Of a stretch of DNA of 64,000 nt, positions 6,084 to 32,280 are shown in pieces (the first letter of the stretch is position 1; each line of letters begins with the position of its first letter). Source of the DNA: Tricharina praecox (taxonomy: Eukaryota); NCBI RefSeq assembly GCF_024521635.1, contig NW_026250431.1, forward strand, positions 186,001 through 250,000, in the 5' to 3' direction. The position numbers and the translations under genes are program-made. Under the pieces are notes generated by a model. The model did not search any database and was not told the DNA's origin. It saw only the letters and a list, made by a program, of their open reading frames with translations.

Positions 6084-9000
6084 AAAATGCTCCTCCCGCC
6101 TCCACAGCCCTTCGAAAGCCTCGCGCTGTTTGCGGTGTGCGCTGTCGTCGTCGGGACCGAGGAGAAAAAAAAGCTCCCTGCAGGTCAACGTGGAGAATTA
6201 GAACGCGTAGCTTACGCTAAATAGAATTCAGCTGGTGGACCTATCAGGCGAGCCGTAGGGATGCTTACTGCAGCGGGTGCTCAGGGCGGCAAGCGGTGAG
6301 GGGTTACTACCCGGAGTACTGGCCTATCGTTGCGACGTGTTCGCGATGGGCGGTGATTCCAGGGGCAAGGGAATGAACAGCGGGCGGTAAACAAGCGGCG
6401 AGAAATGCGATGGACGCTGGAATGATGCGCAGGGTACCCAGCATAGGTAATCCGGAGGGGACTGAGCATAATGCGGAGAGGAGGCGACGTGTGGCTGGAA
6501 AGAGAACTACGATGAAGACACAGAGTTTCCACGCTGACCATCAGCTGCGGTTGGCGTCTCCGCACAGCAAGGCTTGGTTCGCGTGGATAAGAAAATGGGT
6601 AGGTATCATACGTTCTGGGGAAGACGGTGATGTACATACGTTGGCCATCACACAATGTCCGCCCGTTGAAAGACGGCATTTGTGTCGCTGGACCGACCGA
6701 CGCGGTGGAATCGAAATGAATAGGTGCAAACAGGCAGAGTTCATCCGTAACCTTAAGTGGCGTGAAAAGAACGTGCCAACGGCCATTCTCAGAACTGCAT
6801 TGGAGTCAGATCCAGTGACCGAATCGTGAAGAATGGTGATGGCAGTCGTCGGGAGCAGGCTCGGCTGTACAGGTAATAGGACGAACCAGCGACGGATCAA
6901 CACCGTTCCTGGCCGTCACATTCAGACGAATGCATTGGTGGCCAATACACAGATGCCGTTTCCATGTTCACTGACCAACCCAACTTTCGTGAAGCGGCCA
7001 GATGTGGCTTCCCCAACCCTCCGCCCTGGCCTTTCCTATCGTGAATATAAGTCCAGGAGATGAGCGAGACTGGGATATTCAGCAGTGAAAGGAAAGAGTT
7101 CACGGATTAGCTTGACGGCGGAGGACTTGAACACTCATGTTTGCTACCCCCGAATGGCAGCCACACTTGTCGTAACAGAAGGTGTTTGCCGGCCACAATT
7201 TCCAGTTAGAATGCTCCAGTACCATTGTATAAGATGTGGTATTCAGTCTTGTTTCATCATTTATAGCAGGCGACTACATACATATCCCTCCCCCTCAACC
7301 GCCGCTTCTTTATCCTCCTCCATATCTCTTCCCTATCCTCCTCCATATCTCTTCCCTATCCTACTCCTCCTCTCTTCTCCATCTACCCAGTAGTTCACCG
7401 ATCCCTCCAGAGGAGCCTACCTAATTCCAACCCCCGCCTCCGCCTCCGCCGCTGCCGCAAGGCTCCACCTCACTCCAGCCCAGTCCTACTTTATTTTTCA
7501 TTTTCCGGAAGGCCATCAACATTACCAGAGGCCTCCTTTCCCAGTTCGTGGCTAGTTTCCACAGCTAGTAGGCCGAAGGGTGCGTCCCCTACGTTAGATA
7601 TCTCGCGTATCTCTCTCCAGTCCCGCCACTCCCAACGCCACGCGGTGGCTTGCGTGGTCGCCTCTATCGGAGACGATGAGCCTCTAGCAACAGCAGCTCG
7701 CAACTTCCTGACATGTAGAGTACGGGACCACCAGCCTAGGCCTCCGAATGGGTGACTTATTCGACCCGACTATCGTCACCACTGAAAAAAAATTAGACGC
7801 ACCCCTCTCCAGCCACATCCGCTTGTCCCAGAAGCCGAGAACATGCGAAAAAAAGGAAATTCTCATATTGTCGGTACCATGAATCGAACATGGGTCTAAG
7901 CTGATCCGTTGGAACCACAAAGCTTCGTACTAACCACTATACTATACCGACTTGATACACTCTGATCACCCAACTGCCATGTTCAATCTCGGCAAGGCTC
8001 GCTGGAGAGGTACAATGACCGTGGTGGGCGTGAAGCTGGGTTATCTAATGAACATGGTGTACAACATACATGTTAGGTGTTTACTCTACTCGTCAAGAAG
8101 GCACCCATGCTTGGTACCAGGTTGTCTCATCACGAGACCTTGTGGTGGATGCGAAGTACGTTCGTATGCATAGCTTCAGATCTTCCGGTCCATCGAGATA
8201 GACATGGCCAGCCACATTTCTACCAATGCCGCAGCTTTTCCGGTTATTTCGGGCTGCACTGCCACAGTCACGGCCACGTCTGGTTACATATTCACAGGAA
8301 TCGAGCATCGACCAACGGTGTCGAGTGGGCTCCTCCGTTACAGCCGTTGACCTTCGACTCGCCAGCCTTGTTGTCTACCTACCTTCCATCGGACCCACCT
8401 GGCCAGATGACGTCGATTTAACCATAAGACGGAACACAGTAAGCTGACAGCCGAGGCGAAGGACCCGGAAAACAACCCGGAAAACAACCCCGGTACCGTA
8501 CCTACTGCAAGGCTCCAACTGCCCACGATGTGCGCGGGTACGCGGGAGCGGTGCTACGTTCTGGTGCAAGGAATACGCACTACGCACTACGCACTACCTA
8601 CACGAAGGAAAATTTATCGAGCGGGATGGGCAGCGAGTGAGCGGTCGTGACCTGGGATAAAGAGGGGTACTATTCGGCCTGATTCCTCACGATGTTCCGC
8701 AGGTGGAAGCTGGGCGGATGAGGACTCAGGAGGCGTGGCTACCAGGGCGGTCGGTCGGAGCGGTAGAGGATGCTGCTGCGAGCGTGGAGCCTCCGGGATC
8801 AATATTGGGACATAGGTTGCGAGGAATGCGCACGCCACGACGGAAAGCGACGGAGCAGCACGGTACGCAGGCTGACTGCCCAGACATCGACACCTGGGGC
8901 CTATGTACCTAGGTGGCGGCGGTGGCCAGTTCCCAGGCATAACTACCGTGGAAAGCAGAAGTAATTTCCAATATTCCCAATCTCTCCCCGTTAGTTTCTT

Positions 9001-17119: not shown

Positions 17120-18683
17120 CTACTTTCTCTCCTCCTTGAGTCCCTCAAAGTACGCCGCCACATCCTCGGCACCAACGACCTTCCCGCTCTTAGCGAACGG
17201 CTCGAGGAAAGCCTTGACGCGATCCTTCAGCTGGTTGTACGCCAGCACGCCCTCGATGGCACGCACGCGGTCCATGCCGTTGAGCGCGCGCTCGCCCTCC
17301 TCGAAGATGCTGCCGGTTGGCGAGGCGGAGCGGCTGACCTGCGGCTCATGCGCCTCCTCCTTTTCCCGGAGGATCGGGAAGGCCCGGAGGTGCTGGAAGC
17401 AGGAGGGACAGTGGCAGAGCGCCTTGCGGAATGCCTTGGGTAGGAGGAGCGAGAATACAGTGGGGAGGGGAGATGGGGAGGGGAGCGTGCAGGTGACCGT
17501 GGTCTCCACCTTAAGGTCTTCCGCCCGTGCGCGTTTCGTGGAGGAGGAGGAGGACCCTTCCTCCGAGGGATCGGACGCTTTGCGCTTATGGCCGTGTTGT
17601 GGCTCTGGCTGTGAGGCTTCGGTCTTCGGTGGGGAGCAACCAATGGCGACCGTGGTGGTTGCTTCCTGCTCGCTTACTGCTCCTTTCCGCTCGAGTGCGA
17701 AGAATTTCGGATAGCTGGCGAGCTGCTTCAGCCACGGATTCGCTTCCAGACATTTCCAACATATCACGTTGGCATAGTCCTCGGGGAAGCCGAGACGTTT
17801 GGCACGGTCATCGTCATCTTCTTCCTCCTCCTCCTCATCTTCCTCCCGATTTTCGTCTGCTACTGTAGCGAAACCTTTAGTATGTGTACTGTCCTTTTCC
17901 TTCTCCGCAACCGATGTGGTAGCTGCTTCTTCACCTGTGCCGGCCGGTAACTTTCCGTTCATATCCTTCGTCCCATTCACACTCTCCTCCCCACTCAACT
18001 CCGCCTCCTCCTTCTCCTTCTTCTTCTGCTCCTTAACATACGCCGGCGGCTCGCGTCCCACCATACACGTATCGTGGAACCAATCCTCCTGGCAGACGTC
18101 ACCGAGTAAACACTGATGCATGACACCATCCTCCTTCTCCGGTTCATACACCGCCTCACAGATACAAAACCTGCCCCAGAAGTTCTGACCGTATAGTCTC
18201 TCATCCTCCGCCTCCGCATCTATCTCCTTCCTAATTTTGCATGCGACGCCGGGCACCCTCAGCGTTCCACAATCGCACCGAAACCCGCGCTTCTCAAAGA
18301 TCTCGACGAGCTCGTGGTCGCCATGGCAGGAGATCGAGCAGCTGTAGCAGAGCGCCGCGCCGCCGCCGCCGGCGTGGTCGTTGAGCCAGCCGAACGGGGG
18401 AGGTGTGCTGGGTGTCCGCGACGTACACGTCTTGCACGCGTACAGGCTCTGCCGTAATACCCCCAGAGGCCGCGTGCACGCGTCGAAGCTGTACGGGAGC
18501 GCTTCGCGCGCTTCGGATTCGAGCTGTAGCTGCGAGTTGATGTAACTACTGCGGGTTAGCGCGTGGCAGCTAGAGGGTAGAGATGACGAACTCCAAGGCT
18601 GTTACCGAGTCACTTGTGGGTGGGGTGGTGGTTGTGGTGATGGAGCTGGAGGAGGCATCGGCGGCGGCGGGCGGGGACGGCAT
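17120..18683 (-). CDS. mlo2: UBR-box/PHD zinc-finger protein, Mlo2/UBR7-like (intron 18591-18546)
   Basis: LESEAREALPYSFDACT..LRQSLYAC..C..CYSCSISCHGDHELVEIFEKRGFRCDCG; NFWGRFCIC..MHQC..CQEDWFHDTC; C-terminal MDRVRAIEGVLAYN. Confidence 0.88.
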
Positions 18684-19754: not shown

Positions 19755-21151
19755 ATGCCCGAACTCTTTATGCCCACACCCGTCGCACCCCCGCAACACC
19801 CACCACGGAGTTCCCTGACGCAATCACAATTACCCCTACCGCAACCCGTACCGATCATCACCACCGCCGCGAATGGCATCACAACGACCCGGCGCATGTC
19901 CACCTCCGAACCCCGAAAAAAGCGGCACGGATCGAGCTCACATCAACCCCGTCGGCGGGCGGCATGGAAAAAGCTTCTATGGGTGAAGCAAGATTGTACC
20001 CTCCCCTCCCCCCATCTTCCCCCCTTCGCTCTGAATCCATCTAACTGGCGAAGCAAACAGATCCCGACAACTGGGTTGACCCAACCTTCCTCAAGGACTT
20101 GCAGCGGAACATCAACGTGCACCCGTACGACTTCTACTCGCTGGTGGCCGAGAGTACCGTAGTCGTGCAGCACCTCGCGAGCGCCGTCATCTTCGTGACG
20201 AGTTTCGTGGCCATCTACATTGAGATTGTTTCCCCTGTTTCCGTTGTCGCCGTCTCGACGGTCCTCACGATTGCGGGATGGGCGGTGTGGGATCGTGCGG
20301 TTACTTCTCGGGACGATCTCGCTGCTGGAGGGGGAGGGGGCGGTGGAGGAGGATCGGCGACAGCATTAAACCATAAAGGCCTAGGACTAGATTTCTCGAG
20401 CGAGCAGCGGTCGTCCTTCAACAGCGGCAGCTACTTTCCGCCATTCGACTCCGCTGTGTACCCAAGCTCCTCACCGACCACCCCGCGTCCGCCTACTCCT
20501 CCTCCGCCGCCGGCCTACCAGCCCGCCAACACCTCCCTGCGCAAATCGCGCATAATCAGCACCTTCAAATCCGCGCTCCTAATCTACTTCACTTTGCTCG
20601 GTCTCTCGCCCATCCTGCGCTCGCTAACCAAAGGCGTAACATCGGACAGCATCTGGGCGATCGCGACGTGGCTATTCATGGCAAACTTCCTCAGCTTCGA
20701 CTATAGCAGCAGTGTGGAGCGGAACTTTCCCGCGTCGTTCTCGACGAACGCGGCCATCACCAGCAGCGTCGTGCTCGCGTCGCGTTTGACGGACACCAGC
20801 CACGTGTTCTCGCTCATGCTCTTCAGCATCCAGGTTTTCGGCCTGTTTCCGGTCTTTAGGCGCACCCTGAAACATATCAGCTGGAACTGGCATGTGGCCC
20901 TGACGGTGGTCTTGGTGTTGGGCGCCGCTGCGGGCCTGTGGTTTGTGGCGGGCTGGGGGTGGGCCCTGGCTTGGGTCCTCGGTGTCATTGCCGGCATGGG
21001 AGGTTGTGGCTGGTGGATGATTGATCTGCAGAAGTATAAGAAGTATGTCGGCTCCCTCCATGGTGGCTACGTGTGCGTGCTAATGATGAACAGCGAAATT
21101 CATGGACCATGGGATCCTGCAAGACCGGTCATTCGTAGACAGTGGGCATAG
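19755..21151 (+). CDS. GPI2: GPI-GlcNAc transferase subunit Gpi2/PIG-C (3 exons)
   Basis: WKKLLWVKQD|YPDNWVDPTFL, LSPILRSLT..TSDSIWA, STNAA..SVVLASRL, KYK|.EIHGPWD; multiple TM segments. Confidence 0.93.
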
Positions 21152-30170: not shown

Positions 30171-30373
30171 CATTTAGCAGTCCCATCTACCCCCACACAA
30201 ACTTTGGTGCCGCACACAACAAACGAGAATCATCACCAAGGCACGCGCCCGCCCAATATTGTCCGACGACGATCGAAGCCCACCGACAACCCTTCCGCCC
30301 ACCGACTACCGACGCCGACAACTCGAAGGAAACGACATCAGTTTAATCGCACTCCTTCGTCGATCTAATCACA

Positions 30374-31156
30374 ATGGCCCCTATTTCCTACTCCAAGACC
30401 TACAATATGTTTCCCCGGCACCCGAGCACTCTAAGTCTTATGCGCTGACTAGCCATGCACAGGTTCCCAGGCGTCCCTTCGAGTCCGCGCGTCTGTGAGT
30501 TCCACTGTTGTCGAGCTTGTCTCTTCACATGTCTCCTTCGAAACGCTGCATAAGGACTACCGACTGACCTCCCTGCGATTTCTAGCGATGCCGAATTGAA
30601 GACCGTCGGTGAATACGGTCTGCGCAACAAGCGTGAGGTGTGGCGTGTCCAGCTCACCCTGTCCAAGATTCGGTCGGTGCCACTCGCAATCACGGTTCTA
30701 CATTTGGATGACAATGGCTGACATGGTGATAGTCGTGCTGCCCGTCAGCTTTTGACCCTGGACGAGAAGGACCCCAAGCGTCTGTTCGAGGGTAACGCCT
30801 TGATTCGCCGTCTCGTACGAGTCGGTGTCCTGGACGACCAGCGCATGAAGCTCGATTACGTCTTGGCCCTTCGCGTCGAGGACTTCTTGGAGCGTCGTCT
30901 CCAGACTCAGGTCTACAAGCTCGGTCTCGCCAAGTCCATCCACCACGCCCGTGTCCTGATCCGTCAGCGTCACATCCGTGTCGGCAAGCAGATCGTCAAC
31001 GTCCCTTCGTTCGTCGTCCGTCTCGACTCGCAGAAGCACATCGATTTCGCTCTGAGCTCGCCCTTCGGTGGTGGACGCGCCGGTCGCGCTCAGCGCAAGA
31101 AGGCCAAGGCCGCTGAGGCCAAGAACGATGGTGGTGATGAGGAGGATGATGAGTAG
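30374..31156 (+). CDS. RPS9: 40S ribosomal protein S9 (uS4), 4 exons; intron 1 inferred AT-AC
   Basis: [10 protein letters not shown](K)[70 protein letters not shown]. Confidence 0.96.
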
Positions 31157-32280
31157 ATATTTTCAATGACCTACTCATAAATTCTATACCTCTGAGCAAA
31201 AGTTGTGTTTTACTCGTTTCGATGATGTACTAGTAATCCCGTGATCAGAAAGGAGATGGAAATGAACCATAGTTGCATCGGAAGTCCCATTACCCAACCT
31301 CACCTCGGCGGCTCGTGGATTTTACGATTCCACGTTCTCACAACCGGAAGTGTTTCTTCAGCCATCTGCCTACATAGTACATATGTCTCCGTCATCCGTA
31401 CCATCGCTTGCTTGAGCTCCTCGGTGCACGTCTGCGTCCTCGAGCTCCTCCGGCTACTACTGCACGTTCTCAGGCAGTCCCGTCTAGTTCTCCGCAATTG
31501 AAGATCTTGCCTTGTTGCCGATCAATCTTGCCTTGTTGCCAAATATACCTCCTCTTGTCGATTAGCCAGTTATGCTAGTTAGGGATGGGTACCTGCCTCC
31601 ACGTGAGAACCGGTACGCTCGCTGCTGCCTGGTACGGCAAGGTAGCACTGAAGAATCATGAGTCGTCACTCACAAATCCTTGAGTGGGATGCGGGCTCTC
31701 AAGCAGACCCGAGTTGGCTCGTTAGGGTCGGGCCGAAAAATCCGGGACGAACACCTGGGTCAACTTAGCTCGTGCCCAACACTAGACTTGGTCCCTTATA
31801 TATAGACGTCGTGTACCTCTCTTTCGGACCTGTCCCTACACGGCCGCTTGGAGGGCAATTTACTTTCTATCATCCTCGGCCATGAGCGTAGGCTGGAGGG
31901 ATCTAGACATGACAAGTGAGAACAAACTTTAGCTTAGGTCTGTCAACAAATATGGCCAGAATGGCTCCACGGTGTGAGGGCTTAAGTCACTACCTATAAC
32001 CAAGTTGTACATATACCTAGACTTCGTGATAGTGCCTGGTTTCCCTTTCTTATAGTTATATACAAGCGGCTCGAGCTTGAATTCTATCGAGTCACTGAGA
32101 ATGCACCTTCTATAGCTTCGCCGTCAGATCTCGTGCCTTCATACTCCCATGCCCACAAGAGAGGTAAAGAATTTTGACCATTATTTCTGAAAGTAGTTAG
32201 CGGCTTCCTGAGATTATGAAAGCAAGCAACCCTGTTCAACGCCAGTCGTCGACCAAGGACCTTCTAAGCATTAGCTCTCC

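Follow-up and report, generated by a model that had tools for sequence, protein, structure and literature searches.

How does the major cellular machinery for splicing, or any other, remove the first intron of RPS9 in a cup fungus, when that intron opens with AT and closes with AC in a gene that encodes the ribosomal protein uS4? The intron lies within the stretch of DNA analysed here (the window, 64,000 nucleotides). An earlier note, based on the letters of the window, had placed an AT-AC intron with U2-type signals at 30405-30460 and had proposed that it serves as a regulatory switch. We examined the termini and the junction of this intron in RNA and DNA contigs, its counterparts in related loci, the spliceosome that would act on it, and the place in the gene where regulation might be sought.

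The RPS9 gene and its host

The uS4/RPS9 gene is transcribed on the + strand over 30252-31283, with an ATG at 30374, a stop at 31154-31156 and four exons. Its 5' UTR (30252-30373) is delimited by the longest RNA contig, which begins at 30252; an Illumina adapter adjoins 30292, within this UTR, in run X2. Exon 1 (30374-30404) reads ATG GCC CCT ATT TCC TAC TCC AAG ACC TAC A and provides 10 residues and the first base of a Lys codon. It is followed by the 56-nt AT-AC intron 1 (30405-30460) and by exon 2 (30461-30494), which reads AG GTT CCC AGG CGT CCC TTC GAG TCC GCG CGT CT. Introns 2 and 3 are both GT-AG: intron 2 (30495-30585, 91 nt) reads GTGAGT...ACTGAC...TAG, with a joint from 30494 to 30586 in runs X2 and X3, and intron 3 (30673-30732, 60 nt) reads GTCGGT...GCTGAC...ATAG, with a joint from 30671 to 30732 in the same two runs ('GT..AG (cut +1)'). 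Exon 3 (30586-30672), which separates them, was placed from the reading frame and the RNA contigs, and the coding part of exon 4 (30733-31156) ends with the stop TAG at 31154-31156, beyond which the RNA contigs run on to 31283.

The product predicted with these exon borders has 191 residues. Exon 4 alone bears PF01479 (S4, E = 3.8e-12) and PF00163 (Ribosomal_S4 N-terminal domain, E = 7.2e-5), and the uS4 protein is 96% identical to the S9 protein of Rhizina undulata, with further Pezizomycetes among its top matches. The two domains and the high identity to named S9 proteins identify the predicted product as eukaryotic ribosomal protein uS4 (S9). The host was assigned from a neighbouring single-exon gene, GPI2 (20045-21148), which is 95% identical to its counterpart in Tricharina praecox, 70% in Sphaerosporella brunnea, 68% in Pyronema omphalodes and 58% in Rhizina undulata; judged by these identities, the host is a Pyronemataceae-type cup fungus (Pezizales, Ascomycota). 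Elsewhere in the window, a tRNA gene at 7869-7951 on the - strand is the sole Rfam match at gathering score.

The AT-AC junction and its counterparts in related loci

Intron 1 reads ATATGTTTCC...GCGCTGACTAGCCATGCAC, or in short form ATATGT...GCTGAC...GCAC: the 5' splice site ATATGT occupies 30405-30410, the branch box GCTGAC has its branch A at 30448, and the 3' end GCAC carries the terminal AC at 30459-30460, 12 nt past the branch A. What the earlier note had stated about the sequence holds in full, including the end of exon 1 (..AAG ACC TAC A), the 56-nt intron and the start of exon 2 (AG GTT CCC AGG). All GT-AG, GC-AG and AT-AC donor/acceptor pairs within 30377-30492 were enumerated. Twelve of the 43 resulting combinations are in frame and free of stops, and a single one of the 43, AT30405-AC30460, rebuilds the conserved uS4 N-terminus, with the Lys codon restored as A|AG in the way the note had described. 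Its account of GT30409 was borne out as well, as this donor shifts the frame when joined to the CAG ending at AG30462, and exchanges K for NIHAQ, a net gain of four residues, when joined to the TAG at 30452. It had also called GT30409 the sole local GT; here it overlooked another at 30435-30436, and its point survives in that the additional GT is not usable as a donor, being just 13 nt ahead of the branch A.

Four public runs were aligned on 30200-31300. Two of them, X2 and X3, come from different studies with different organism labels, and are treated as RNA on a guess, the contigs being taken for cDNA from the exact loss of all three introns and from depths in the thousands. The X3 contig (363 nt, word depth 8,901, 0 differences) covers 30252-30404, 30461-30494, 30586-30671 and 30732-30821; its joint from 30404 to 30461 ('skips 56, AT..AC') is flanked by 153 and 34 letters, and it crosses introns 2 and 3 as well. 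The X2 contig (694 nt, depth 4,578, 0 differences) presents the same three joints with just 21 letters on the exon-1 side, so that under a bridging rule of 31 letters per side the X3 contig passes and the X2 contig falls below. A third contig, also from X2, follows the locus up to 30405 and then reads GGTTCCCA. The mRNA joint predicted beforehand, TACA^AGGTT, is therefore present in contigs from two studies. It can slide by 1 base (TA..CA), because 30405 and 30461 are both A, and no GT-AG placement fits it. The AT-AC intron 1 of RPS9 is real and is used in mature mRNA.

The DNA letters of intron 1 are confirmed by a contig of run X1, which covers 30200-30904 with 0 differences and may derive from the window's own sample. 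The joint is absent from the contigs of X1 and from those of X5, a metatranscriptome. Neither X2 nor X3 has a contig over 30422-30458, a stretch across which their contigs join, and this gives no measure of splicing efficiency: assembled contigs can neither gauge such efficiency nor exclude minor isoforms.

Counterparts of the intron were sought in a metagenome scan, in which the best 80 of 513 uS4-encoding stretches were compared and the segment running from the KTY to the FE codons was classified by script. Within this set, the segment is intronless in 28 loci, holds a GT-AG intron inside the RRP codons in 16, and has a GT-AG intron separating Lys from Val in one (L069). Two loci, L006 and L007, admit AT-AC alone and have no canonical solution; three more (L015, L022, L074) were read by eye and 30 were left unresolved by the script. 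Two other metagenomes supplied L006 and L007, which represent one species in two samples, since they differ at 1 of 1,700 bases. They align with the window at 78% identity over 1,847 nt and 83% over 358 nt, upstream intergenic DNA included. Their intron 1 has 54 nt and reads TACA|ATATGTTTCCC...TACTGAT...ATGTAC|AGGTT. Agreement between the window and L006 is complete over the first 11 bases of the intron, and amounts to 12 of 28 positions in the interior and to 11 of the final 17 bases. In this comparison, two related species hold the AT and the AC while the body of the intron drifts, which rules out an assembly error.

The AT-AC conservation that the earlier note had put forward as a check is thus found at the same site in one more species, and its basis is that species together with an indirect reading of one annotated protein, from Rhizina undulata. 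The N-terminus of the annotated S9 of R. undulata is shaped like the product of a wrong GT(+5)...CCCAG model, of which the window's version would be YSKTYNMRPFESAR, and in it Tyr is followed by the Asn codon AAT, as A|AT would dictate. This annotation suggests, and does not show, that the AT-AC intron is older than the family. The S9 model of Maublancomyces gigas (152 aa) misses its N-terminus, corresponding to exons 1-3, and the N-terminal models of both species look wrong, as they would if an AT-AC intron were beyond the capacity of gene finders. Among the N-termini of 64 homologues (of 120 listed hits), these two were the only anomalies, most of the others being prokaryote-style calls on metagenome contigs. 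A cluster look-up of three Pezizomycete S9 proteins returned no additional Pezizomycete members. The pattern TAYTCNAARACNTAYAATAYGT, used to find further AT-AC copies, gave 17 matches in contigs of prokaryote genomes, none of the 17 with a uS4 motif, and 0 matches in viral contigs.

Two explanations would make the junction spurious. As the window stems from an assembly of metagenome type and its best DNA match is a soil metagenome, one might suspect a sequencing or assembly error that conceals a true GT-AG intron. Such an error would need two separate changes, at 30405 and at 30460; it would have to be repeated in the second assembly, from run X1, and it is at odds with the AT and AC found at the same places in L006 and L007, from other samples, and with an RNA junction incompatible with every GT-AG pair. 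We give it a vanishingly small probability. The joint might otherwise reflect template switching by reverse transcriptase, or contigs from a processed copy elsewhere, and non-canonical junctions are indeed described as frequent reverse-transcription artefacts in the accessible text of PMC7072748. However, this joint is flanked by just a 1-nt repeat, restores the conserved reading frame and is the sole form assembled at both word depths given above, while the contigs match the UTRs of this very locus with 0 differences and likewise lack introns 2 and 3, against a processed copy. The chance that either process produced the joint appears negligible.

Some further RPS9 introns seen along the way also depart from GT-AG, in DNA only. 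Apparent GC-AG introns follow the YSK codons in L022 (about 880-1040, AAG|GCAAGT) and L074 (about 2030-2110, AAG|GCGCGT), and another lies in L006 (2670-2740) inside the equivalent of the window's exon 4 (CAG|GCACGA...CTACAG|ACC). In addition, the soil sample contains a second related fungus whose RPS9 shows 9-17 differences over exons 3-4 (30593-30948; contigs of X1 and X5). At its junction, two other letters replace the window's intron 3 in DNA as well as RNA contigs, so this fungus has no intron at that position.

Spliceosome and origin of the AT-AC intron

The donor of intron 1 corresponds to GTATGT at +2 to +6, with A at +1, and GTATGT donors are present in homologous RPS9 introns of other loci among the best 80 of 513. 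Its branch box CTGAC is common to the RNA-verified GT-AG introns 2 (ACTGAC) and 3 (GCTGAC) of the same gene, and the box of L006 is TACTGAT. The U12 consensus consists of the donor ATATCCTT (ATATCC) and the branch TCCTTAAC, with CC at +5/+6 as its hallmark. The window, with its donor ATATGTTT and branch region GCGCTGAC, and L006, with the branch region TGTACTGAT, both diverge from that consensus. The single match to ATATCCTT in the window, at 17961, is attributable to chance because 1.23 matches are expected, and Rfam reveals no snRNA genes within the window.

A U12-type AT-AC intron, removed by the minor spliceosome, has therefore to be weighed against these letters. The AT-AC termini, the first four bases ATAT, which are those of the U12 donor, and a branch A 12 nt from the 3' end, in the usual U12 range, all speak for it. 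Yet positions +5/+6 of the donor are GT and not CC, nothing resembling TCCTTAAC occurs as branch box in the window's intron or in that of L006, and the box that does occur is the one employed by the gene's own GT-AG introns. Moreover, U12 introns and minor snRNAs are reported to be lacking from the Ascomycota, in the portions of PMC2846911 and PMC10639083 that deal with the phylum, and the host is an ascomycete. We consider a U12-type intron very improbable, and the earlier note was right in reading the ATATGT donor and the CTGAC box as U2-type signals and in recalling that ascomycetes are described without a U12 spliceosome.

Removal by the major spliceosome agrees with what is reported of its requirements. 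The accessible text of PMC1557818 defines a U2-type AT-AC intron by a donor that follows the U2-type consensus save at +1. During splicing by the major spliceosome, the two terminal bases of an intron are held together by non-Watson-Crick pairing, and the branch A has the penultimate A as its partner (PMC1557818, PMC11585973, as excerpted). In mutant studies, A at +1 is rescued by C at the last position, less efficiently than GT-AG is spliced (PMC1557818, likewise). The statement that paired +1 G>A and terminal G>C changes suppress each other, also made in the earlier note, is thus in the literature (PMC1557818 and PMC11585973, in the same excerpts). In its letters, intron 1 is a GTATGT-class fungal intron with the first G turned to A and the last G to C. 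U1 and then U6 would pair with AUAUGU in the normal register, and U2 would pair with the CUGAC branch box, presenting the branch A at 30448. At the second step, A(+1) and the last C would stand in for the usual non-Watson-Crick pair of first and last G, the penultimate A, partner of the branch A, being kept in intron 1. By the A(+1)/C(last) rule, ligation would then take place after AC30460 and not after AG30462, two bases downstream. We infer the acting snRNPs and the A-C pairing, and read the termini, the junction, the U2-type motifs and the conservation in a second species directly from the data. Overall, we put at roughly nine in ten the probability that intron 1, with its AT-AC termini, is spliced constitutively and that the major (U2-type) spliceosome removes it.

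Other fungi hint at how this intron may have arisen. L069 (612-790) and L074 (about 2060-2260) have GT-AG introns at TACAAG|GT...AG|GTY, shifted 2 nt downstream relative to the AT-AC site, and the acceptor of L069 reads ...ACAG|. The K|V site of L015 (100-420) is likewise interrupted, with GAAAAT as donor, which would make it a GA-AG intron unless the sequence is in error. TACAAG|GTATGT deprived of its two G's is exactly the window's TACAATATGT. The ancestor of intron 1 may then have been a GT-AG intron in phase 0, placed between Lys and Val (TACAAG|GT...ACAG|GTT, as in L069), a derivation that we hold tentatively, at somewhat below even odds. Once the two donor G's were lost, donor and acceptor alike would lie 2 nt further upstream: faced with A at +1, the spliceosome would pick the AC already present two bases ahead of the old AG, and the mRNA, TAC AAG GTT, would be unchanged. 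The 2-nt offset from the GT-AG intron of other fungi accordingly suggests a one-step 'slide' of an intron that leaves the message intact.

RPS9 intron 1 adds one case to the described U2-type ('type II') AT-AC introns. It stands out as constitutive, as part of an essential and very strongly expressed gene, and as conserved between species. A survey of U2-type AT-AC introns counts, in its accessible part, 15 in human, 6 in mouse, 3 in fly and none in worm or Arabidopsis, and hypothesises cases in fungal xylanase genes (PMC1557818). The type II introns of human SCN4A and SCN5A share with intron 1 the AT-AC termini with an otherwise ordinary U2 donor and branch, and conservation between related species (PMC1557818, same part). 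They differ from it in that the RPS9 intron has just 56 nt, sits in a very highly expressed ribosomal gene, and belongs to an ascomycete, a phylum reported without the minor spliceosome, where use of the major snRNPs is deduced. In Saccharomyces cerevisiae, a natural AT-AC intron within the annotated RPL30 intron, along with G1A/last-G-to-C suppressor pairs, is described in the excerpted text of PMC11585973, with reference to Gould 2016 and Parker & Siliciano 1993; here too an ascomycete ribosomal protein gene, the major spliceosome and an A-C in place of a G-G pair are involved. The RPL30 case, however, is nested in another intron, whereas RPS9 intron 1 interrupts the coding sequence and is the sole route to the mRNA.

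AT-AC introns are rare in fungal annotations (PMC7072748, in the part consulted), and sporadic ones with RNA or Sanger support are reported from Fusarium graminearum (PMC3577648) and Ganoderma lingzhi (13 introns, 0.014%; PMC11590231), as excerpted. Like the xylanase cases, these concern fungi without U12 splicing, in which AT-AC sites cause errors in gene models. In the accessible portions of such reports on Dikarya, RPS9 is not named, and we found no description of conservation across species or of a 2-nt offset from a GT-AG intron. Our literature searches found nothing that combines AT-AC with Pezizales; AT-AC and RPS9 occur together in a review of yeast splicing (PMC11585973) and otherwise in work on oxymonads and sponges, so far as the retrieved text extends. 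What the locus offers is an RNA-verified AT-AC intron, attributed to the major spliceosome, in a phylum reported without the minor one, with the A(+1)/C(last) rule, worked out in mutants of yeast, probably underlying the only productive mRNA. In practice, an AT-AC intron beyond the reach of standard gene finders is mainly an annotation problem.

Regulation and the conserved element of intron 2

Yeast RPS9 controls its own expression by way of its introns, and the Drosophila gene does so by alternative splicing and NMD, according to the accessible text of PMC3315480, which agrees with the earlier note on this point. The note had gone further and seen in intron 1 a deliberately weak intron that, with the CAG 2 nt downstream, acts as an NMD-coupled switch: slow splicing would compete with the frameshifting CAG (30460-30462) or with GT30409, and excess uS4 would yield NMD-sensitive forms. 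Besides the precedent of yeast and flies, the lower efficiency of A(+1)/C(last) introns relative to GT-AG in mutants, the adjacency of AC and AG at the 3' end of intron 1, and the occurrence of other non-canonical donors in fungal RPS9 loci (GC-AG in L022, L074 and L006, GA-AG in L015) are compatible with this idea. Against it, no alternative joint at intron 1 appears in the contigs of any of the four runs, which drop rare forms. The CAG itself needs no regulatory or selective explanation, as it is forced by the AC terminus that the A(+1)/C(last) rule dictates together with the Lys codon A|AG. Furthermore, the interior of intron 1 is identical to that of L006 at just 12 of 28 positions, and the conserved structured element of the gene is in intron 2 and not in intron 1. 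A switch built on the weakness of intron 1 thus went unsupported, and we regard it as unlikely.

Intron 2 presents a different picture. Its first 71 nt are identical between the window and L006 at 70 positions; in the same comparison exon 3 agrees at 80 of 87 and intron 3 at 29 of 60. These 71 nt contain an element, (G)GCCACTG-stem-GAGCTTG.CTC-stem-CATGTC, close to the 5' end of the intron that RPS9 has after ...ESARL; in the window it spans 30498-30536 on the + strand (CCACTG...GAGCTTG.CTC...CATGTC). Among the best 80 of 513 loci, the element is present in all 34 that have this intron (L002, L010, L017, L022, L033, L049, L066, L069 and others), 15 loci being without the intron and 31 impossible to anchor. 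RNAalifold, applied to 29 distinct sequences, predicts 10 pairs, six of them with compensatory changes; 13 columns of the element are invariant. In the predicted hairpin, 91.7% of cells are paired, compared with 27.5-44.5% when the partners are slid, and the covariation score of 0.361, against a shuffled mean of 0.172, is reached by 0 of 500 shuffles.

The fold is nevertheless uneven among species. The copy of the element in L049 folds at -26.3 kcal/mol (z = -3.1). That of the window folds weakly (-6.9 kcal/mol, z = +1.26) and breaks two of the four outer pairs in the alignment, and these folding predictions count against a strong hairpin in this lineage. No Rfam family corresponds to the element: 30200-31300 yields just two chance matches (E about 6), and L002, L049, L069 and L033 yield none. 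A search for the term 'RPS9' in two surveys of fungal structured RNAs (PMC5640933, PMC8216456) gave 0 occurrences.

Should uS4 control the splicing of its own transcript in these fungi, the candidate operator is more likely, from the comparison of the loci, to be the element of intron 2 than intron 1. The hairpin also supplies a candidate, open to testing, for the site at which uS4 binds fungal RPS9 pre-mRNA, which has long been sought. The two introns could also be combined in one scheme, where the AT-AC termini form a selected kinetic gate in which a slow A-C second step is set against the AG 2 nt further on. This gate would act as a second checkpoint beside the intron-2 hairpin, the putative uS4 operator, and tune uS4 through unproductive splicing and decay, having arisen in Pezizales by the 2-nt slide from a GT-AG ancestor. 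We think this scheme unlikely as a whole.

The element resembles published cases of RPS9 intron autoregulation (Plocik and Guthrie, 2012, PMC3315480; Hooks, 2016, PMC4937481) in the gene family concerned and in that conserved intron structures are proposed as S9 binding sites, within the excerpted text of both. The published yeast structure has been traced just to Saccharomycetaceae and Candida (Hooks, 2016, PMC4937481, same excerpt). In yeast, the intron stands after codon 3 and carries other motifs, whereas the element described here belongs to the intron after ...ESARL. Six yeast-type RPS9 loci of our comparison (L056, L057, L058, L061, L062, L079) are interrupted by one intron only, after codon 3 and ahead of the YSKTY codons. 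They share the motifs GAGGWTCGGGNCCTC and ACTGAAYYCCCGACACTTCAGT, unlike the intron-2 element of Pezizomycotina, and these motifs presumably correspond to the published yeast RPS9 intron structures.
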